Below are positions 991 to 19,173 of a stretch of 20,000 nt of DNA, piece by piece. Source of the DNA: an uncultured virus (IMG/VR IMGVR_UViG_3300021962_000002). Its lineage: Duplodnaviria > Heunggongvirae > Uroviricota > Caudoviricetes. The DNA lies in IMG/VR virus record IMGVR_UViG_3300021962_000002, one strand, 5' to 3'. Position 1 is the stretch's first letter; the number at the start of each line of letters is the position of its first letter. Position numbers and translations under genes: made by a program. Under the pieces are notes generated by a model, which saw only the letters and a list, made by a program, of their open reading frames with translations, was not told the DNA's origin and made no database searches.

Positions 991-1002
991 AATGATTAAA
1001 AG

Positions 1003-1076
1003 CGCCCTGAGCAAGATTCGAACTTGCAACCACTGACTTAGAAGGTCAATGCTCTATCCAATTGAGCTATCAGGGC
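1003..1076 (-). tRNA. tRNA-Arg (anticodon TCT), CCA not encoded
   Basis: Minus strand GCCCTGATAGCTCAATTGGATAGAGCATTGACCTTCTAAGTCAGTGGTTGCAAGTTCGAATCTTGCTCAGGGCG. Acceptor stem GCCCTGA/TCAGGGC, D arm GCTC/GAGC, anticodon loop CTTCTAA, T arm GCAAG-TTCGAAT-CTTGC. Confidence 0.96.
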
Positions 1077-2184: not shown

Positions 2185-2608
2185 TTGCTCCTCCTTCCTC
2201 TGCCATGGCTTTCCACTCAAGCGCATCTAACCAGCCTTGTCGGTAGCGACTCCAGCATAAACCATCGCTTTTTTCTGGGTTCTTCTGATATGCGAGCTTG
2301 CAAGCGTCATCCATCTTTTTGCTGGTGTCGTCACCGACAAGGTCACCATGCCGCGCTAAAACGTCCGCTAGCGGCTCGCCTTGCTCAACCCACTCAAGCA
2401 AGCTATCTCGCCAGTCTTCGGCGTAGGGCGGGTGGTTAAGTTTGAATGCGTGACCACCATCCCACGTTGATTGTTTCTTGCTTGGCTTTAACTTGAAACT
2501 CCATACCTCACCATCTAAATCCTGCGCAATGTATTTTGGCTCCTCAATCCCCGCCGCTTTACAGGCGGCAAGCAGGGAGTCCGATAGTTGTTCTTCTTGT
2601 GTGTTCAC
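2177..2608 (-). CDS. Hypothetical phage protein (143 aa)
   Basis: GTGA overlap with the upstream stop. The YIAQDLDGEVW...P...DWRDSL pattern resembles common small phage proteins. Confidence 0.75.
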   Translation of the reverse strand: MNTQEEQLSDSLLAACKAAGIEEPKYIAQDLDGEVWSFKLKPSKKQSTWDGGHAFKLNHPPYAEDWRDSLLEWVEQGEPLADVLARHGDLVGDDTSKKMDDACKLAYQKNPEKSDGLCWSRYRQGWLDALEWKAMAEEGGASE

Positions 2609-2820: not shown

Positions 2821-3015
2821 TCATAGTCCTTTCTTTTCTTGGTTATCTGAATGACATTCAGGTTTTTCTACAAACACTGCAATTGGAGCATCGTCACTAC
2901 CCCACCAGTTAGCTGCGTTCAGCAACACTAAGGGCGTTAAAGGTCTGCTGCAATCATTGCGCTTGTTACACGTTTCGTAGAATGTGCAGTATGTTCTATC
3001 TCTATAGCAAATCAT
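2821..3015 (-). CDS. Small Cys-rich hypothetical protein (64 aa)
   Basis: CYRDRTYC-x5-C-x5-C, possibly metal-binding. ATGA overlap. Confidence 0.7.
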   Translation of the reverse strand: MICYRDRTYCTFYETCNKRNDCSRPLTPLVLLNAANWWGSDDAPIAVFVEKPECHSDNQEKKGL

Positions 3016-3407
3016 GGTTTAGTCAAGCTAATTAGTGCTTTGGCGTGTAGCTCTGCTGCTTCGCGGGTTAGGTGAACTACTCCATTTGAGAGTAATCGGT
3101 TATCAATGTCGTCATCACTCCATAAGTAATATTGAACATTAGCACTCTCTCTGAATGATACGAAATAATACTTCTCTTTTATACGGGGTTTTACTTTCAA
3201 AGGTTCTGGCACATCGTATGCACCAATGCGGATCGTTTTAATTCTGCGGCGGTAATTTCTAGTCACATCCCACTCCGGGTGAGTATTACATTTTCTCCAT
3301 TCTTTTTGTTCTACACGTTGATACTCCCAATTATTCCATGGCGTATCTGATTCTTGTGCGTCTTGCGCATAGGCAAGCATTAGGTCTGCATGTATATGTT
3401 TTGTCAT
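3012..3407 (-). CDS. Hypothetical phage protein (131 aa)
   Basis: KHIHADLMLAYAQD...P.W...YR...VPEPL...VHLTREAAELHAKAL resembles a widespread phage hypothetical family. Confidence 0.8.
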   Translation of the reverse strand: MTKHIHADLMLAYAQDAQESDTPWNNWEYQRVEQKEWRKCNTHPEWDVTRNYRRRIKTIRIGAYDVPEPLKVKPRIKEKYYFVSFRESANVQYYLWSDDDIDNRLLSNGVVHLTREAAELHAKALISLTKP

Positions 3408-4114: not shown

Positions 4115-5662
4115 TCAAGCGAAGCTTAATTTACGCTTTGAGGTTTTCAATGCCTTTGGAAGAGAACCTGTCAGCGCGAACGCTGATACAATCGCTGCTA
4201 GTTTAGGATGATCTTGCAAGGAGAATTTGTGTTCTGGTGCTTGTGGTGCAATGCCGCGCACACCGTCACGGTTGATGTATACAGAACCACTGCGAGCTAC
4301 CATTGGGGTAACTGTTTGTGGTGCTGCGCATGGTGTAGTGGATTCATGTTGTGATGGTGCAACATATTCTGTTGAAGCCAAGTATTTAGTCTGGCTAAAC
4401 GGATTAGGTGCTGGCATGAATGCTTTAGGGTATGCAGTAGGAATACCAAAGAAACGGCAACGAGCAACATTGCTACCTTTCATGGTAAAGAAAGACTTCT
4501 CAACATTAAGGCCTACACAATAAGCTTGTGTATCCTCAAGTGCGTCATAGTCATCTGAGTGCATGAGACGGGCTACATAGAACGCCTTGTTTACGTTGCC
4601 CTCATACTTATGGATAAGGCGCATTGCTGTTTGCTCTACGCGCATATCGAGTAAGTCATGATAATCCTGCGACTGGAATGTTGACGCGCCTGACATGAAG
4701 TCAATCAAGTCTTCATTCTCGGCTGCAAGTTCCATTACCAACAACTCTGTTGGAGTCATTGTTTCAGGGTCAAGGTTATCTGACATAGCCTCAATCATCA
4801 ACTGCGCCTGATGGTCACCATCAAACTCATAGCAATAATTGAGGGATTGTTCTGAATCGTCCTCTTCGATGATGCCCTTGATTAAGGCATACTCTACTTC
4901 TGAAACGGAGTTAGCAGGATGATGAACATCTGTGGACTTAACCGTTCCTTCCATAGTAACATGGAAAGATGCTGGTGTAAGCTTTGGATCACGCATCATG
5001 GTGATCAGGACAATCCATTGATTGCCTACCCGCATTGCTGTTGAGGTAGCAACAAGATCATCGTTACCGACAATCTGCTGAGCAACTCTGTTAAAGTCTC
5101 CACCAATAGCACGTCCTAACCGTGTAGCTACGGATTGCATAGCTGAGTTAGGATTGTTGTGCAGGATTGGAGAGAATCTTCCGTCCTGTGCGCCAAGATC
5201 AACACGGATTGAGCCGTGTTTGAACACGTAACGTGCTGGACGGTGATACACTGTGTTATTGACCTGACCTGAACGTGTAGTGGGACGTTCATACGGAGGC
5301 CATAACGTAGTCTCAAGATCATTCCACTTACCATTAACCTTGGAGCTAACGGAGATAGACTGATGAGACTTGCGTAGGTTAGCTGCTTTCCACTTCTCTA
5401 AGGATTTGTAGGAAGCAATAACCCCGAATACAATAGAGATTGCTGTTTGAGGATGATAAGGCTCCTCTAAGGCAACTTCCATTAACTGGCGGCGTATCCG
5501 TGAAGGAACACCACCAAACTCCTTCACAATCCACCTTCTGGCGTATTGTGGGAGTAGCCCTGTTCTAAGATGGGCGTATTCTTGCTCGCTGATTAGATTT
5601 TGATCATGTAGGCCAGCGAAACCTGCATAATTCTCTGTTGTGGTGTGTGTAGTCGCACTCAT
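4115..5662 (-). CDS. Large orphan protein (about 515 aa)
   Basis: Long ORF. First ATG at 5662 (MSATTHTT). Basic N-terminal part and acidic centre. No family recognised. Confidence 0.8.
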   Translation of the reverse strand: MSATTHTTTENYAGFAGLHDQNLISEQEYAHLRTGLLPQYARRWIVKEFGGVPSRIRRQLMEVALEEPYHPQTAISIVFGVIASYKSLEKWKAANLRKSHQSISVSSKVNGKWNDLETTLWPPYERPTTRSGQVNNTVYHRPARYVFKHGSIRVDLGAQDGRFSPILHNNPNSAMQSVATRLGRAIGGDFNRVAQQIVGNDDLVATSTAMRVGNQWIVLITMMRDPKLTPASFHVTMEGTVKSTDVHHPANSVSEVEYALIKGIIEEDDSEQSLNYCYEFDGDHQAQLMIEAMSDNLDPETMTPTELLVMELAAENEDLIDFMSGASTFQSQDYHDLLDMRVEQTAMRLIHKYEGNVNKAFYVARLMHSDDYDALEDTQAYCVGLNVEKSFFTMKGSNVARCRFFGIPTAYPKAFMPAPNPFSQTKYLASTEYVAPSQHESTTPCAAPQTVTPMVARSGSVYINRDGVRGIAPQAPEHKFSLQDHPKLAAIVSAFALTGSLPKALKTSKRKLSFA

Positions 5663-5696
5663 AATAATGCATTTCAACCCATAGCGAAGCTTATTC

Positions 5697-5724
5697 TTGA
5701 CAACCTTTGCCAATTATTTATGCT
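5697..5724 (+). promoter_or_regulatory. Sigma70-type promoter for the putative terS
   Basis: TTGACA (5697-5702), 16 nt spacer, TATGCT (5719-5724). Predicted +1 near 5731, the A of the ATG. Confidence 0.6.
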
Positions 5725-5730
5725 TACGCC

Positions 5731-6213
5731 ATGGGAGATTCTATTCAGCCAATCCGTAAAGGACGGCCACCAAAGATCGCAGATCAAGTTTGGTTGGAAA
5801 TTGAAGATAGGTATGTATCAGGCGATACTTCCTTGAAAGATTTAGCTCTGGAGTTTGGATTGAACTACCAAACTGTGTTGTCGAGGAGCAAAGACAAACG
5901 ATGGTTAAGTCCACAACGAATCAGCCGTGCATTAACCCGCACCGATTTACCCCCACAGGACACAGCAAAGCAAATTGCAGACCGTTGGGCGGCGAGAAAA
6001 GAAGAAATGAGAGAGAAACTATACAAAGGCGCAAGCAAAGCCTTAGATACTTTCTGGCTCATGTCTCCCATGCCTCAGGATTTTGCGGAGGCTGAAAAAG
6101 CTATGAAGATGCTTGATAAAGCAATCAACCCAGATGAAGGAAAGACAGACAGTAGTATTAACCTCTCTATCTTAACCAACGGTTTTAATCCTTCTCCTAT
6201 TGTTGACATCTGA
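5731..6213 (+). CDS. Putative terminase small subunit (N-terminal HTH)
   Basis: GRPPKI...WLEIEDRYVSGDTSLKDLALEFGLNYQTVLSRSKDKRW, then helical segments. Same strand as terL and upstream of it. ATG at 5731. Confidence 0.65.
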   Translation: MGDSIQPIRKGRPPKIADQVWLEIEDRYVSGDTSLKDLALEFGLNYQTVLSRSKDKRWLSPQRISRALTRTDLPPQDTAKQIADRWAARKEEMREKLYKGASKALDTFWLMSPMPQDFAEAEKAMKMLDKAINPDEGKTDSSINLSILTNGFNPSPIVDI

Positions 6214-6371
6214 TTACTTTAGCCAAGTTTGGATACACCAGAAAAGAGCCTATAAAGTGCAAAGAAGCTAAATAAGCACACAAACAAGCAAAACAAGCAC
6301 TGAATTAGCGCATATGAGCCAATTTGAGAGCACTTTGACCACTTGGTAGGGTGATCACAGCGGATTGGGGG

Positions 6372-6683
6372 TAAGCCATGCTTAAATCGGCTTATAGAGA
6401 GGTATAGACGCACAGTGTTTTTGCCGTAACCCTAAGTAATTACGGATGGATGAGGCACGGTAGTACAGAATAACTGTTAGGAGAGATGTTGATATACCAA
6501 TGGATTTTATGTTTTAGCCCCGAGTAGAGCCAAAACAATCTGTATTGGTATTGATCTTTCCAGTAATCACAATGTATTCCCCTTTGCCTGTTCTCAAACC
6601 ACTAAGGCAACTAAGATTGATCTTGTTTTTGCCTGCTGTTCTTGTGTGGATAGAGAGTAGGATAGTGTTAATTAGGGTAACAC
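6372..6683. repeat. Cluster of inverted repeats in non-coding DNA
   Basis: TAAGCC/GGCTTA 6372-6394; CCGTAA/TTACGG 6424-6445; long imperfect IR 6473-6564; AGGCAA..AAGAT/ATCTT..TTGCCT 6605-6634; GTGTTA/TAACAC 6665-6683. Confidence 0.65.
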
Positions 6684-6685
6684 CC

Positions 6686-6722
6686 AAGACAACGCCCCAA
6701 TTTAGTTGGCTAAACTGAGGCG
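6686..6722 (-). terminator. Probable intrinsic terminator whose apex is the 14-bp motif (copy 2)
   Basis: Minus strand CGCCTCAGTTTAG-CCAA-CTAAATTGGGGCG (13 bp including two G-U) then TTGTCTT, just after the stop at 6736. Confidence 0.65.
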
Positions 6723-6735
6723 CTGGTATTGGAGG

Positions 6736-6918
6736 CTATAGACGAGTAACGTCTAGTGGGGGAAGAACACTATGATCTTTTAACCTTATTGGTAACTTGA
6801 CCATAAGGATCACTCTATCCCAAACCTTCTTCTTTACAGGAAGAGAAAGTAAGTATTGAGTTGCGTTCTCCACTGCGTTTGCGTGGCTATTCTGTTTGCG
6901 TTGTTTATCGTATTTCAT
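6736..6918 (-). CDS. Small hypothetical protein (60 aa) downstream of the hammerhead
   Basis: Start context ACACATATGAA is identical to that of ORF 7252. Followed by a terminator. Confidence 0.55.
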   Translation of the reverse strand: MKYDKQRKQNSHANAVENATQYLLSLPVKKKVWDRVILMVKLPIRLKDHSVLPPLDVTRL

Positions 6919-6944
6919 ATGTGTATATGTTATTGCAGTCTGAT

Positions 6945-6994
6945 GACCTCATCAGTGCGCTCATTAAGCACAGACCCCCGAAGGAGTTTCGGTC
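6945..6994 (-). ncRNA. Type II hammerhead ribozyme
   Basis: Minus strand GACC-GAA-ACUCC-UUCG-GGGGU-C^UGUGCUU-AAU-GAGCGCA-CUGAUGA-GGUC. Core CUGAUGA and GAAA, GUC cleavage triplet, stem III with a cUUCGg loop, 7-bp stem I, open stem II GACC/GGUC. Confidence 0.92.
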
Positions 6995-7003
6995 TATTCT
7001 TTC

Positions 7004-7252
7004 TTACCAGTTACGATCTATTAAACAACGCTTGATGATCTCTGCCATAGTCTCGTTAATCTCATTGATTGCATGATTGATAAAGCCAGCGCCCGAACCC
7101 ATTCCTGCTCTGACGTTGCGACAATCAGCTTCATGTCTTTCTTCAAACGGGAATGATCCCTTTGGTAACAGCGCTATCAATCCATCCTTCCTTGCTTGAA
7201 GTTGATTGATTGCTTCTGCTGCTGTGATTGGTAGTTGTAATGTAGTATTCAT
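7004..7252 (-). CDS. Small hypothetical protein (82 aa) upstream of the hammerhead
   Basis: ATG with the leader ACCAACAACACACACAT. The stop is about 10 nt before the ribozyme. Confidence 0.65.
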   Translation of the reverse strand: MNTTLQLPITAAEAINQLQARKDGLIALLPKGSFPFEERHEADCRNVRAGMGSGAGFINHAINEINETMAEIIKRCLIDRNW

Positions 7253-7407
7253 ATGTGTGTGTTGTTGGTATAGTCTGAGGGGCGGCGGGTGTCACCTGAC
7301 TCCCCTACTCCGCAGTATCGACTACACAGATGGAACAGAACGTTTGTGAAAAAATTCTCGTAAAAAAAATTCTTGAGTGAAAATAAATGATGGGTTAATT
7401 AGACGCC

Positions 7408-9135
7408 ATGGATAAGTATGGATACAATTGGCCGACTGGTGTAAATCAGTTGACGATTGAGTTATGGTGCTATGCGCATAGAAAGTGCAGTGTTGAGGAG
7501 AAGTGGGATCACTTCAAGAATGTGGTTGATTTGGCGTTTAACTGTGATGGGAGTGTAAGGAGGGTTATTTGGAATAAGTGGACGAATAAGATGATTCGTA
7601 GTGCTATTGGTGATGGGGGGAAGAAGAGGTTTTTGGGAATTGCGGGATGTTCGTCTAGTGGCAAGAGTGATGGCTTTGCCTTGTATGCATTGGTGGAGTT
7701 TTGGAGTCGGCCAGCAGACACATATGTGTTTGTTATGAGCACGACTAAGGCTGACGCTAGGAAAAGGATTTGGAGGAGTGTTACGCAGTTGTATGCACAG
7801 GCACAAAGGATGGGATGTCCTGGAAAGTTAGTGGATAGCCTTGGAGTAATTCAGGGCGTAAACAAGTTAGGGAAACTGACAAGGAACAGTGGCATTGAGC
7901 TTGTGGCAGCAGGTAAGGCTGAAGCTGGAGAAGCTAGTAGTGGATTGATTGGTATTAAGAGTCCGAATGTTGTTGTGATTGCTGATGAGATGCCAAACCT
8001 TGGAGAGGGTATTTTGGAAGCAGCGTGGGACAACCTTACGTCCAATGATCGGGTGTTCTTTGGTGGATTGGGTAACCCGAATTTATTTAGTGATCCATTT
8101 GCTGATTTGTGCGAGCCAGTTGGTGGGTGGGCTACAATTACGGAACAAGATGAGGAATGGAAAACAAAGTATGGAATGTGTATTCGCTTTAATGCTGAGT
8201 TAAGTCCACGGATTACAGAGCCTGATGGAGAGAAGTATTTTTGGCAACCAGATCAAATGTATTGCGACAGGATTGCAGACGCTAGAGGTGGTAAGAGAAG
8301 TAGAGGATACTATCGTTTCGTTAAAGCTTTCTGGTGTCCAGAAGGTGCTGGAAATACAATTTACCAAGAAAGTGAGTTCATTGTGAACAATGCAATGGAG
8401 GATCAAGAGCCTGAATGGGAGGGGACGCCGATTGTAATTACGGCGCTAGATCCTGCATTTACCCGTGGAGGTGATAGGGCTTACGCTGGTGTTGCAAAGA
8501 TTGGTAAAGTTGGTGGGCGCGATCATCTTCATATTTGTCAGTATAGGGGGTTAGTAGAGGATACTTCTGACAAGAAGAATCCATTATCTCATCAATTGGT
8601 GATACAATGGAAGGAATTGGCTACAGACTGGGGTGTTACACCATACAGAGCTACGCTAGACGGTACAGGGAGCGGTATTAGCTTTGGGCATATAGTTGAT
8701 GCGCTTTGGAGTCCTGCTGTCTCTAAAGTCAATTTTAGCTCAAAGGCTTCAGGTAGAAAAGCATTCTTCCGTGGCAAAGAAATTGAGTATTACAACAAGA
8801 ACAGCGAGTTATGGATTCAACCAAAAGAGTTTATTCGTGGTGGTCAGATTACTGGCGTGAGCAAGGAGTTGATGAAGGAACTTTGCACACGACAATACTA
8901 TTCAAAAGAAACTGCTAAGTTGCGCGTAGAAAGCAAAGATGAACATAAAAAGAATAACAATGGAGAGTCTTGTGACATTGCAGATATGTTCTTAATGTTA
9001 GTAGATAAATCCATTGCTTTAGGAATGTTTCATTCTGAAGAAGTCAAGAATGTCAGTAAGGTAACTGGCAAGAATTGGAGTAGATTAGTTAAGAAAAAGC
9101 AAATTAATGCTTGCTGTGGAAGAAAATTGAGGTAA
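7408..9135 (+). CDS. terL: Terminase large subunit
   Basis: Walker A GCSSSGKS, Walker B VVVIADE, GNP coupling motif, nuclease motifs ALDPAFTRGGD and CDIAD. Directly upstream of a portal-sized ORF. Confidence 0.9.
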   Translation: MDKYGYNWPTGVNQLTIELWCYAHRKCSVEEKWDHFKNVVDLAFNCDGSVRRVIWNKWTNKMIRSAIGDGGKKRFLGIAGCSSSGKSDGFALYALVEFWSRPADTYVFVMSTTKADARKRIWRSVTQLYAQAQRMGCPGKLVDSLGVIQGVNKLGKLTRNSGIELVAAGKAEAGEASSGLIGIKSPNVVVIADEMPNLGEGILEAAWDNLTSNDRVFFGGLGNPNLFSDPFADLCEPVGGWATITEQDEEWKTKYGMCIRFNAELSPRITEPDGEKYFWQPDQMYCDRIADARGGKRSRGYYRFVKAFWCPEGAGNTIYQESEFIVNNAMEDQEPEWEGTPIVITALDPAFTRGGDRAYAGVAKIGKVGGRDHLHICQYRGLVEDTSDKKNPLSHQLVIQWKELATDWGVTPYRATLDGTGSGISFGHIVDALWSPAVSKVNFSSKASGRKAFFRGKEIEYYNKNSELWIQPKEFIRGGQITGVSKELMKELCTRQYYSKETAKLRVESKDEHKKNNNGESCDIADMFLMLVDKSIALGMFHSEEVKNVSKVTGKNWSRLVKKKQINACCGRKLR

Positions 9136-14506: not shown

Positions 14507-14520
14507 TTTAGCCAACTAAA
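14507..14520. promoter_or_regulatory. 14-bp motif TTTAGCCAACTAAA, copy 3
   Basis: Exact copy 5 nt upstream of the ATG at 14526. Confidence 0.55.
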
Positions 14521-18637: not shown

Positions 18638-19173
18638 ATTACAAATGGCTCAATAACATTGGCTTGCTTCCCAGAATGGTGCAGCAAGGTCTTGCCTTGA
18701 TTGGAACACGCGAAGTAATTGGAAAGGGTAGCAATAGGACAATTCTTGAATGGCGTGACAACCTTAATCAGAATGGAGTTAAGATTTCTGGATACTCTGA
18801 TGATGATATTCCATGGTGTGGGCTATTTGTAGCTCATCTTGCCTTTAGCCGACTAAACTCTCCAACTGAAGTTCCTGAGTCTCCGTTATGGGCAAGGAAC
18901 TGGGCTTCTTATGGAACTAAGGTTAAGACAGCAATGTTGGGAGATGTCCTTGTATTTGCCCGTAATGGAGGAGGACATGTTGGTTTATATATTGCAGAAG
19001 ATGCTACTGCTTATCATGTTCTTGGTGGAAACCAATCAAATGCTGTAAGTATTGCGCGTATTGAAAAATCACGCTGTATTGCTATCTGCCGTCCAAATTA
19101 TAATAATCAACCAGAAAGCGTAAAACAATATATTGTAGCTTCATCTGGAGAACTCTCAAAGAACGAACAATGA
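18634..19173 (+). CDS. TIGR02594-family NlpC/P60-like peptidase, putative endolysin
   Basis: DDDIPWCGLFV (catalytic Cys), GDVLVF, GGGHVG (His), LGGNQ. Start reassigned to ATG 18634 (ATGA overlap). Confidence 0.85.
   Translation: MNYKWLNNIGLLPRMVQQGLALIGTREVIGKGSNRTILEWRDNLNQNGVKISGYSDDDIPWCGLFVAHLAFSRLNSPTEVPESPLWARNWASYGTKVKTAMLGDVLVFARNGGGHVGLYIAEDATAYHVLGGNQSNAVSIARIEKSRCIAICRPNYNNQPESVKQYIVASSGELSKNEQ

Follow-up and report, generated by a model that had tools for sequence, protein, structure and literature searches.

The minus strand of a 20,000-nucleotide (nt) stretch of DNA from an uncultured virus of the Caudoviricetes (IMG/VR record IMGVR_UViG_3300021962_000002; the whole stretch is called the window, and all positions refer to it) carries a predicted type II hammerhead ribozyme that is followed by a short tail complementary to its own catalytic core. 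When compared with other viral hammerheads, the window copy is placed as one member of a putative new subclass of type II hammerheads in which a core-masking tail is selected. This tail is probably a selected device, either an on/off element or a lock. The element is read here as a two-state ribozyme in which masking would act mainly after the cut, as a lock on the 3' cleavage product, and a probability of roughly 0.45 is given to this tentative reading.

The type II layout was read from the sequence at 6994-6945 on the minus strand, with stems I and III capped and stem II open-ended. The 5' strand of stem II (GACC, 6991-6994) pairs with GGUC (6948-6945) and is followed by the core residues G12, A13 and A14 plus A15.1 (GAAA, 6987-6990). 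The stem III hairpin comes next (CUCC-UUCG-GGGG, 6975-6986) and is closed by A15.1 (6987) with U16.1 (6974). U16.1 and C17 (6973-6974) lead into the stem I hairpin UGUGC-UUAAUGA-GCGCA (6956-6972), to which the energy model gives up to 7 base pairs (bp) and a 3-nt loop, and then into the core segment C3 U4 G5 A6 U7 G8 A9 (CUGAUGA, 6949-6955) and the stem II 3' strand (GGUC, 6945-6948). Both parts of the conserved core are present (C3-A9 as CUGAUGA, 6955-6949; G12 A13 A14 as GAA, 6990-6988), as are the A15.1-U16.1 pair (A6987-U6974) and a residue other than G at H17 (C6973). From the position of the core in standard hammerhead numbering, site-specific self-cleavage is predicted after C6973, between 6973 and 6972. 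A descriptor scan of both strands identified this element as the sole hammerhead in the 20 kb. Given the invariant core and the three stems, the pairing-preserving changes in a close relative, and the other self-cleaving RNAs found in the same slot (the last two are described below), the minus strand at 6994-6945 is a predicted canonical type II hammerhead. The initial annotation, a model's reading of the letters, had described the same context, and the core, the 4-bp stem II (GACC/GGUC) and the upstream stop codon at 7006-7004 all matched its description.

Read in order along the minus strand, the element ends with GCA (6958-6956), CUGAUGA (6955-6949), GG (6948-6947), UCAUCAG (6946-6940), AC (6939-6938) and UGC (6937-6935), and AUCAGACUGC comes directly after the stem II 3' strand GGUC (6948-6945). 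The perfect 7-nt inverted repeat that the initial annotation had noticed was exact in the repeat finder: the core (5' arm, 6949-6955) and the anti-core tail UCAUCAG (3' arm, 6940-6946; the same in the close relative) are 100% complementary over 7 nt with a spacer of 2 nt. A 2-nt loop is sterically impossible, and the real helix is therefore 6 bp long, formed by C3-G8 with CAUCAG (6945-6940) around an AGGU loop; ViennaRNA draws the same helix and loop. Position N7 of the core is here U7 (6951), and it is paired with A6944. The hairpin consumes C3-G8 (plus A9 in the 7-bp form) and U10.3 and C10.4 of stem II (U6946 and C6945, which belong to both the stem II 3' strand and the core complement). 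Given that these residues are shared, the masking helix and the active fold are mutually exclusive, as had been claimed. The further extension by GCA/UGC fared less well. The segment ACUGC (6935-6939; present in the window and in the close relative) consists of a bulge plus a UGC that can pair with GCA at 6958-6956, so the extension can be drawn, but it requires the AC bulge, costs stem I three pairs, and is found at chance level among related hammerheads (a 3-bp extension of this kind in 6/55 vs 3.9 expected).

The hairpin by itself is statistically unremarkable in the window, where 17 perfect 7-nt inverted repeats with spacers of 0-6 nt were found and 11.3 +/- 4.1 were expected from 100 first-order Markov simulations. 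Its significance comes from the fact that it covers the catalytic core and from its recurrence, with covariation, in other hammerheads.

This recurrence was determined by two scans of viral contigs for the pattern CGAAAC...GUC...CUGANGAG with the tail left free; both scans are samples, with about 125 loci each among the matches listed. Enough flank was available for 263 rows, and 190 of these passed a stem filter (stem I at least 4 bp, stems II and III at least 3 bp each), with 73 dropped. The motif NUCAG, in which a free base precedes the complement of C3-A6, lay no more than 12 nt after G10.1 in 50 of the 190 well-formed viral type II hammerheads listed, and the corresponding controls gave 5/190 in the 5' flank and 7/190 at tail positions 13-40. 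Tail-core helices of at least 6 bp were present in 36/190, while shuffled tails predicted 3.5. Pairing between tail and core thus recurs in 26-29% of the 190, and 55 hammerheads with a core-complementary tail (the window copy and 54 others) were taken as the class. In this class the tail starts inside a 4-bp stem II or directly behind it and is complementary to C3-N7, in most cases to C3-G8. All but two of the 55 (53/55) have a stem II of exactly 4 bp, and the first ATG typically lies 19-25 nt past the tail. Stems I and III and the flanks share no sequence relatedness across the class.

The strongest signal came from N7, the sole variable base of the core. The tail base opposite it was compatible in 49 of the 50 motif-bearing hammerheads: among U7 cores (n=111) it was A in 24 and G in 5, among C7 cores (n=63) it was G in 20, C in 1 and A in 0, and none of the A7 cores (n=15) carried a tail. 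The association between N7 and the tail base was significant by Fisher test (2e-9) and stayed so once the sequences were grouped into 42 clusters by 70% identity in their variable parts (p = 2e-7), and both the U7-A and the C7-G state were found within one stem II type (ACC, CCT and GCC). A further viral scan, in which the tail was specified and N7 and its partner were left free, yielded 93 well-formed distinct hammerheads in 70 clusters. These comprised 54 with U7-A, 37 with C7-G, and one each with U7-G and U7-U, with no C7-A, so that 92/93 were compatible. Wobble tails (CGUCGG, UCGUUAG and UUGUCAG) likewise keep the pairing. Given the covariation of the tail base with N7 and the enrichment over flank and shuffle controls, sequence comparison indicates that selection maintains the helix between the tail and C3-G8 in one subclass of the type II hammerheads of phages. 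The initial annotation had asked whether homologous phage hammerheads keep the complement, and it is indeed retained in the stated fraction and covaries with N7. Compensatory upkeep of this kind shows selection beyond the ability to cut.

These data also bear on the view that the tail has no function of its own, the inverted repeat being either fortuitous or passed down within a single lineage of hammerheads. Such a view could draw on the commonness of perfect 7-nt repeats in the window, on the low tail count in a metagenome sample (4/38, see below), and on the 97% identity across the region of the sole close homologue of the window element (in the locus L001), where a conserved tail says little. 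Against it stand the joint switching of N7 and tail base from U-A to C-G across at least 70 clusters and within shared stem II types, the unrelated stems and flanks of the class, and an enrichment several-fold over both kinds of control, which together leave chance or descent a very improbable account.

Two smaller surveys were also made. Where neighbouring hammerheads could be compared for the presence of the tail, 15 pairs were concordant and 4 discordant (59% concordance expected), which is suggestive only. A looser tail pattern applied to genome contigs gave a well-formed hammerhead in 1 of 120 loci listed, the rest being mostly chance matches. Separately, G7 motifs of the form CGAAAC...GUC...CUGAGGAG were seen in the viral-contig loci L160, L189, L216, L217, L220 and L221 with an ATG 6-10 nt downstream, so that GAGGAG of the core would also act as a Shine-Dalgarno sequence. 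As 1 of 19 G7 rows passed the stem filter, this group may represent a different architecture or may not be ribozymes.

Type II hammerheads have been known in phages since 2011, and in their consensus loop I forms a pseudoknot with the 3' tail and stem II is often very short (PMC3088659). The tail of the window element could accordingly be an ordinary tertiary contact, in which UCAU (6946-6943) pairs with AUGA of loop I (6964-6961) as a pseudoknot over a 2-bp stem II, and complementarity to the core is a by-product of the resemblance between AAUGA in loop I and GAUGA in the core. This 4-bp pairing can be drawn by eye in the window, and loop I of most type II hammerheads is able to pair as a pseudoknot, over 4 bp or more, with the segment after stem II, while stem II itself can shrink to 2 bp (PMC3088659). 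In the window, though, the contact would cost two of the four stem II pairs, and only 3 bp (UGA/UCA) are left if stem II is not touched. Across the class, loop I is free to vary, complementarity of the tail to the core is kept, and the tail base follows N7 rather than loop I. Loop I and tail can pair over 4 bp or more in 5/55, compared with 8% for shuffled tails. A loop I pseudoknot was therefore rejected as the role of the tail, there being no class signal for it, and as an account of the window element it is improbable.

In order to place the element among its close relatives, 17 loci (L001-L017) found through the neighbouring terminase-like gene were used, 15 of which include the upstream DNA, and breakpoints were taken from blastn of window positions 5500-7500 against them. 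The hammerhead is kept in one of these 15 (L001), where 7 of 111 aligned positions differ from the window and the core and tail are unchanged. All three stem differences keep pairing: the stem II 5' strand is GGCC (A-U becomes G.U), G6976 of stem III is changed to A (U.G becomes U-A), and U6970 of stem I is changed to C (U.G becomes C-G). The upstream open reading frame (ORF) ends there with TGA, a one-base change by which the stop is retained. For the remaining relatives, homology to the window stops at 6930 (L009, L002 and L003) and restarts at 7002-7004 (L009 and L005-L007). These mosaic breakpoints delimit the ribozyme cassette at 6931-7003 (minus strand), which comprises the hammerhead and its tail, and exactly this stretch is swapped in close relatives.

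What replaces the hammerhead is in several cases another self-cleaving RNA. A pistol ribozyme was found in L005 at 2453-2523 (minus strand; 61.6 bits against a gathering score of 34.5), in the slot that follows the first leftward gene, and Twister-P5 was found in L002 and L013 at 2450-2503 and in L016 at 2033-2092 and 2503-2556 (all minus strand; 53-56 bits against 37.6). L011 has a sub-threshold twister-P1 match at 2347-2401 (minus strand). The terminase of the ribozyme-bearing relatives is 77-99% identical to that of the window. Judged by these matches, three ribozyme classes (hammerhead, pistol and twister) are apparently interchangeable at one slot, and acceptance of three unrelated classes is good evidence that RNA cutting there is the function. 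L009, alone among seven loci scanned, gave no Rfam match at E < 0.5; its segment 1749-2580 (minus strand) places about 830 nt where the window has the 73-nt hammerhead cassette (6931-7003). By eye, this insert has an apparent stem-loop after the upstream stop and a structured-looking leader ahead of the homologue of the downstream gene, and a ribozyme of an undescribed kind there is conceivable.

The slot bears directly on whether the window element is a ribozyme at all, as opposed to an intrinsic terminator or another stem-loop of the messenger RNA (mRNA) with coincidental hammerhead motifs. No hammerhead reached the Rfam gathering score in the window, the type II model RF02276 (37 bits) included. 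The best match at relaxed E-value was a partial Hammerhead_3 (19.0-21.2 bits against a gathering score of 48.5; E 0.0065-0.11), and no RF02276 match was listed for the window by a tool that hides lower-scoring members of a clan. Among 20 loci of the class, the close structural relatives of the element, there were 9 RF02276 matches of 30.5-38.6 bits, of which the gathering score was reached in 2/20. Together with the complete core and three stems, the pairing-preserving changes in L001 and the pistol and twister elements in the same slot, these matches make the view that no ribozyme is present extremely improbable. An intrinsic terminator in particular was rejected, as no U tract follows the hairpin (ACUGCAAUAACAUAUAC) and no terminator-like site was listed on the minus strand in 6600-7500. 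A terminator-like hairpin followed by TCTATTCTTT does arise on the plus strand (6978-6992) from the complement of stem III and GAAA, probably as a by-product of the GC-rich stem III.

Fold competition was evaluated with a nearest-neighbour model. In this model the three stems I, II and III of the window element amount to -16.9 kcal/mol, stems I and III with the masking helix to -19.5, and the minimum free energy (MFE) is -20.3. The masked fold is therefore 2.6 kcal/mol below the active secondary structure, stem II contributing -4.2 and the masking helix -6.8 kcal/mol. Over the class, the masked fold lies on average 1.8 +/- 1.8 kcal/mol below the active one, it is the lower of the two in 46 of 55 members, and the MFE structure includes the masking helix in 44. 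The energies of stem II and of the masking helix are correlated with rho 0.31 (n=55), which is not decisive. In a truncation series, the probability of stem II was 0.90-0.98 for 3' ends at 6945-6942, and the probability of the masking helix was 0.97-0.99 once the 3' end lay at 6940 or beyond. Given that the model omits the tertiary energy of the hammerhead, these numbers indicate close competition and not its outcome. For the isolated 3' product, the predicted fold (-15.1 kcal/mol) places the masking hairpin directly next to the stem I hairpin and leaves no base unpaired at their junction.

These results separate the parts of what the initial annotation had proposed. Refolding of the 3' product, one of its suggestions, is what the predicted fold of that product shows. 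Its comparison of transcripts ending at 6945 with longer ones has an in silico analogue in the truncation series, in which the fold flips with five more bases; this is a computed result that ignores tertiary energy. As for its conformational or kinetic switch, the description as a two-state element is fair, but cleavage limited to a short co-transcriptional window is unlikely as the main mechanism, because the tail starts inside the stem II 3' strand and five bases are enough to flip the fold. A polymerase needs roughly 0.1 s for five bases. The fastest natural hammerheads cut at above 100 per min (PMC6155905), and at such rates even these would rarely cut within the five-base window.

Taken at face value, the computed preference for the masked fold would suit a gate or attenuator that acts before cleavage. 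The masked state would then be the uncut default and would keep the ribozyme off or slow, cleavage would occur only once the hairpin was opened or out-competed, and tailed phage type II hammerheads would be natural gated two-state ribozymes, regulated and not constitutive, that cut between cistrons under particular conditions. Triggers that may be proposed are ribosome traffic on the upstream ORF, binding of a 30S subunit to the leader of the next ORF, an RNA helicase, and temperature or Mg2+; the corresponding release conditions would be gaps in ribosome traffic over the adjacent stop, loading of 30S on the leader, or a shift in temperature or Mg2+. Besides the modelled flip from stem II to masking helix and the greater computed stability of the masked fold in most of the class, the helix aims specifically at the invariant core, and a stop triplet (counted in any reading frame) lies no more than 10 nt upstream of GAAA in 161 of the 190 hammerheads. 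In yeast, competitor helices placed downstream block a hairpin ribozyme like upstream ones (PMC2817708), and regulated cleavage of phage hammerheads has been raised as a possibility (Perreault 2011, PMC3088659).

Other features fit a gate poorly. There is no evident domain for a ligand or a protein to bind. The helix never exceeds 5-7 bp and its extension stays at chance, so that it looks tuned for reversibility and not for shut-off, and the constitutive-looking pistol and twister elements in the slot of the relatives suggest that cleavage as such is needed there. A ribosome footprint is about 12-15 nt. A ribosome at 7006-7004 would plausibly, on geometry only, cover the stem II 5' strand and favour the masked state; at the stop it would block stem II and not open the hairpin, so simple activation by ribosomes is geometrically unsupported. 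On balance a pre-cleavage gate is considered possible but doubtful, both for the window element and as a description of the tailed hammerheads in general.

With the post-cleavage lock, the same pairing would be used at a later step. In the active state, the 4-bp stem II and tertiary contacts that the energy model does not include would hold the core open, and the RNA would be cut after C6973. In the masked state, the tail would pair with C3-G8 and remove two stem II pairs. The cleavage products would be joined by the 4-bp stem II alone, and as they part the tail would capture the core, leaving two abutting hairpins at the 5'-hydroxyl end of the 3' product. Such a lock would make the cut irreversible. 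It would also leave a fully paired 5' end 21 nt before the next AUG, and a masked free core could not pair with halves of other hammerheads; several phages bear arrays of hammerheads that share one stem II. In uncut RNA, this helix would reduce the share of molecules in the active fold and so tune the rate without abolishing cleavage.

Several observations weigh against this reading. The modelled occupancy of the masked fold before cleavage (0.97-0.99), if taken at face value, would favour an inhibitor or gate over a mere lock. Any hairpin would serve to protect the 5' end, so protection alone leaves the aim at the core partly unexplained. No tail was found on A7 or G7 cores (0/16; 15 A7 and 1 G7), and none appeared on such cores in the scan with N7 left free. 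A metagenome sample (122 rows) gave the tail in 4 of 38 well-formed hammerheads, with one U7-U mismatch and no C7, a sample size insufficient for a covariation test, and the frequency of the class is unstable between samples, from about 10% to 29%. The missing gathering-score match in the window, given above, belongs with these points.

In viroid and satellite-RNA hammerheads, the inactive fold involves a circular genome in its entirety, through its rod-like or replication structure. The window element is like them in that a catalytic fold competes with another structure, and differs in that the competitor is a local 6-bp hairpin in an mRNA leader. Compared with the type II hammerheads described in phages (PMC3088659, RF02276), it has the same core, the same topology and the same kind of intergenic site, with small phage genes on either side. 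Gene cassettes of varying identity are often found next to phage hammerheads (Perreault 2011, PMC3088659). The RF02276 consensus has a 2-bp stem II and the tail AGCCaAAg, whereas the window element and its subclass have a 4-bp stem II and a tail that pairs with the catalytic core and not with loop I. RF02276 expects a pseudoknot tail and misses most of the subclass, which is in consequence under-annotated.

Two artificial systems offer closer parallels to the masking itself. In engineered cis-blocked hammerheads, the block can be tuned through its stability (Kennedy, Liang and Smolke 2012, PMC3553993). The blocker in that work is 12 nt long, lies at the 5' end, is transcribed first and is released by a DNA strand (PMC3553993). 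The natural tail follows the same principle with 5-7 nt placed 3' of the ribozyme and with no known releasing factor. Mutually exclusive adjacent helices decide the assembly of a hairpin ribozyme in yeast mRNA, where competitors located downstream are equivalent to those located upstream (Mahen 2010, PMC2817708). That system, unlike the phage tail, is artificial, belongs to another ribozyme class and operates in a eukaryotic cell.

None of the literature searched, which did not extend to subscription-only papers or to figures, describes a tail complementary to the core in a natural type II hammerhead. The tail motifs were not found in the text of the PMC3088659 supplement, where alignment formatting may hide them, and the sequences of the D. 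vulgaris hammerheads, three loci validated in cells, were not in the text of the PMC8782182 supplement. Hammerheads of phages and prophages number in the thousands, and reviews call their biological role open (PMC6155905, PMC6765202). The tail would be a natural counterpart of the engineered cis-blocked ribozymes. If the gated reading were true, the tailed elements would constitute the first natural class of conformationally regulated hammerheads in mRNA, would provide a protein-free timer or switch that uncouples neighbouring phage genes, and would explain part of the unexplained biology of the thousands of phage ribozymes.

The cassette is located between the first two genes of a leftward operon. 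The upstream ORF encodes 82 amino acids (aa; 7004-7252, minus strand) and ends with the stop TAA at 7006-7004, 9 nt ahead of stem II. The downstream ORF encodes 60 aa (6736-6918, minus strand), and its AUG (6918-6916) lies 21 nt past the end of the masking hairpin; both features were taken from the ORF list and its translations. Neither flanking ORF had a match in Pfam or PHROG. Two protein hints were obtained in the window, a weak match to phrog_2 at 7408-9135 (E 5.6e-4), which hints at a terminase, and a match to phrog_18768 (function unassigned) at 3012-3407. Phage GenBank records gave no DNA match to 6400-7600 by megablast or to 6700-7300 by blastn. Six RNA runs include small shares of 6600-7400. 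Contigs from four of them reach 6617-6725 and 7122-7264, with no contig over 6735-7112; the ribozyme lies outside both intervals, and this coverage bears on neither its expression nor its cleavage.

Three further observations concern the window as a whole. A tRNA-Arg gene with the anticodon TCT is located at 1002-1076 (minus strand). Purine runs resembling Shine-Dalgarno sequences are nearly lacking in the 30 nt ahead of 22 ORF starts, and the ORF leaders are rich in A and C, which suggests a host that starts translation without Shine-Dalgarno pairing. The palindromic motif TTTAGCCAACTAAA occurs in five copies at no more than 2 mismatches (three perfect; 0.26 expected), at 246-259, 415-428 and 6701-6714 on the minus strand and at 14507-14520 and 18844-18857 on the plus strand. 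The copies always lie on the local gene strand, and all three perfect ones lie shortly 5' of ORF starts; the motif could be a phage promoter, an operator or an RNA hairpin. A resembling sequence, TTTAGCCAGACTAAA, is present in L009.

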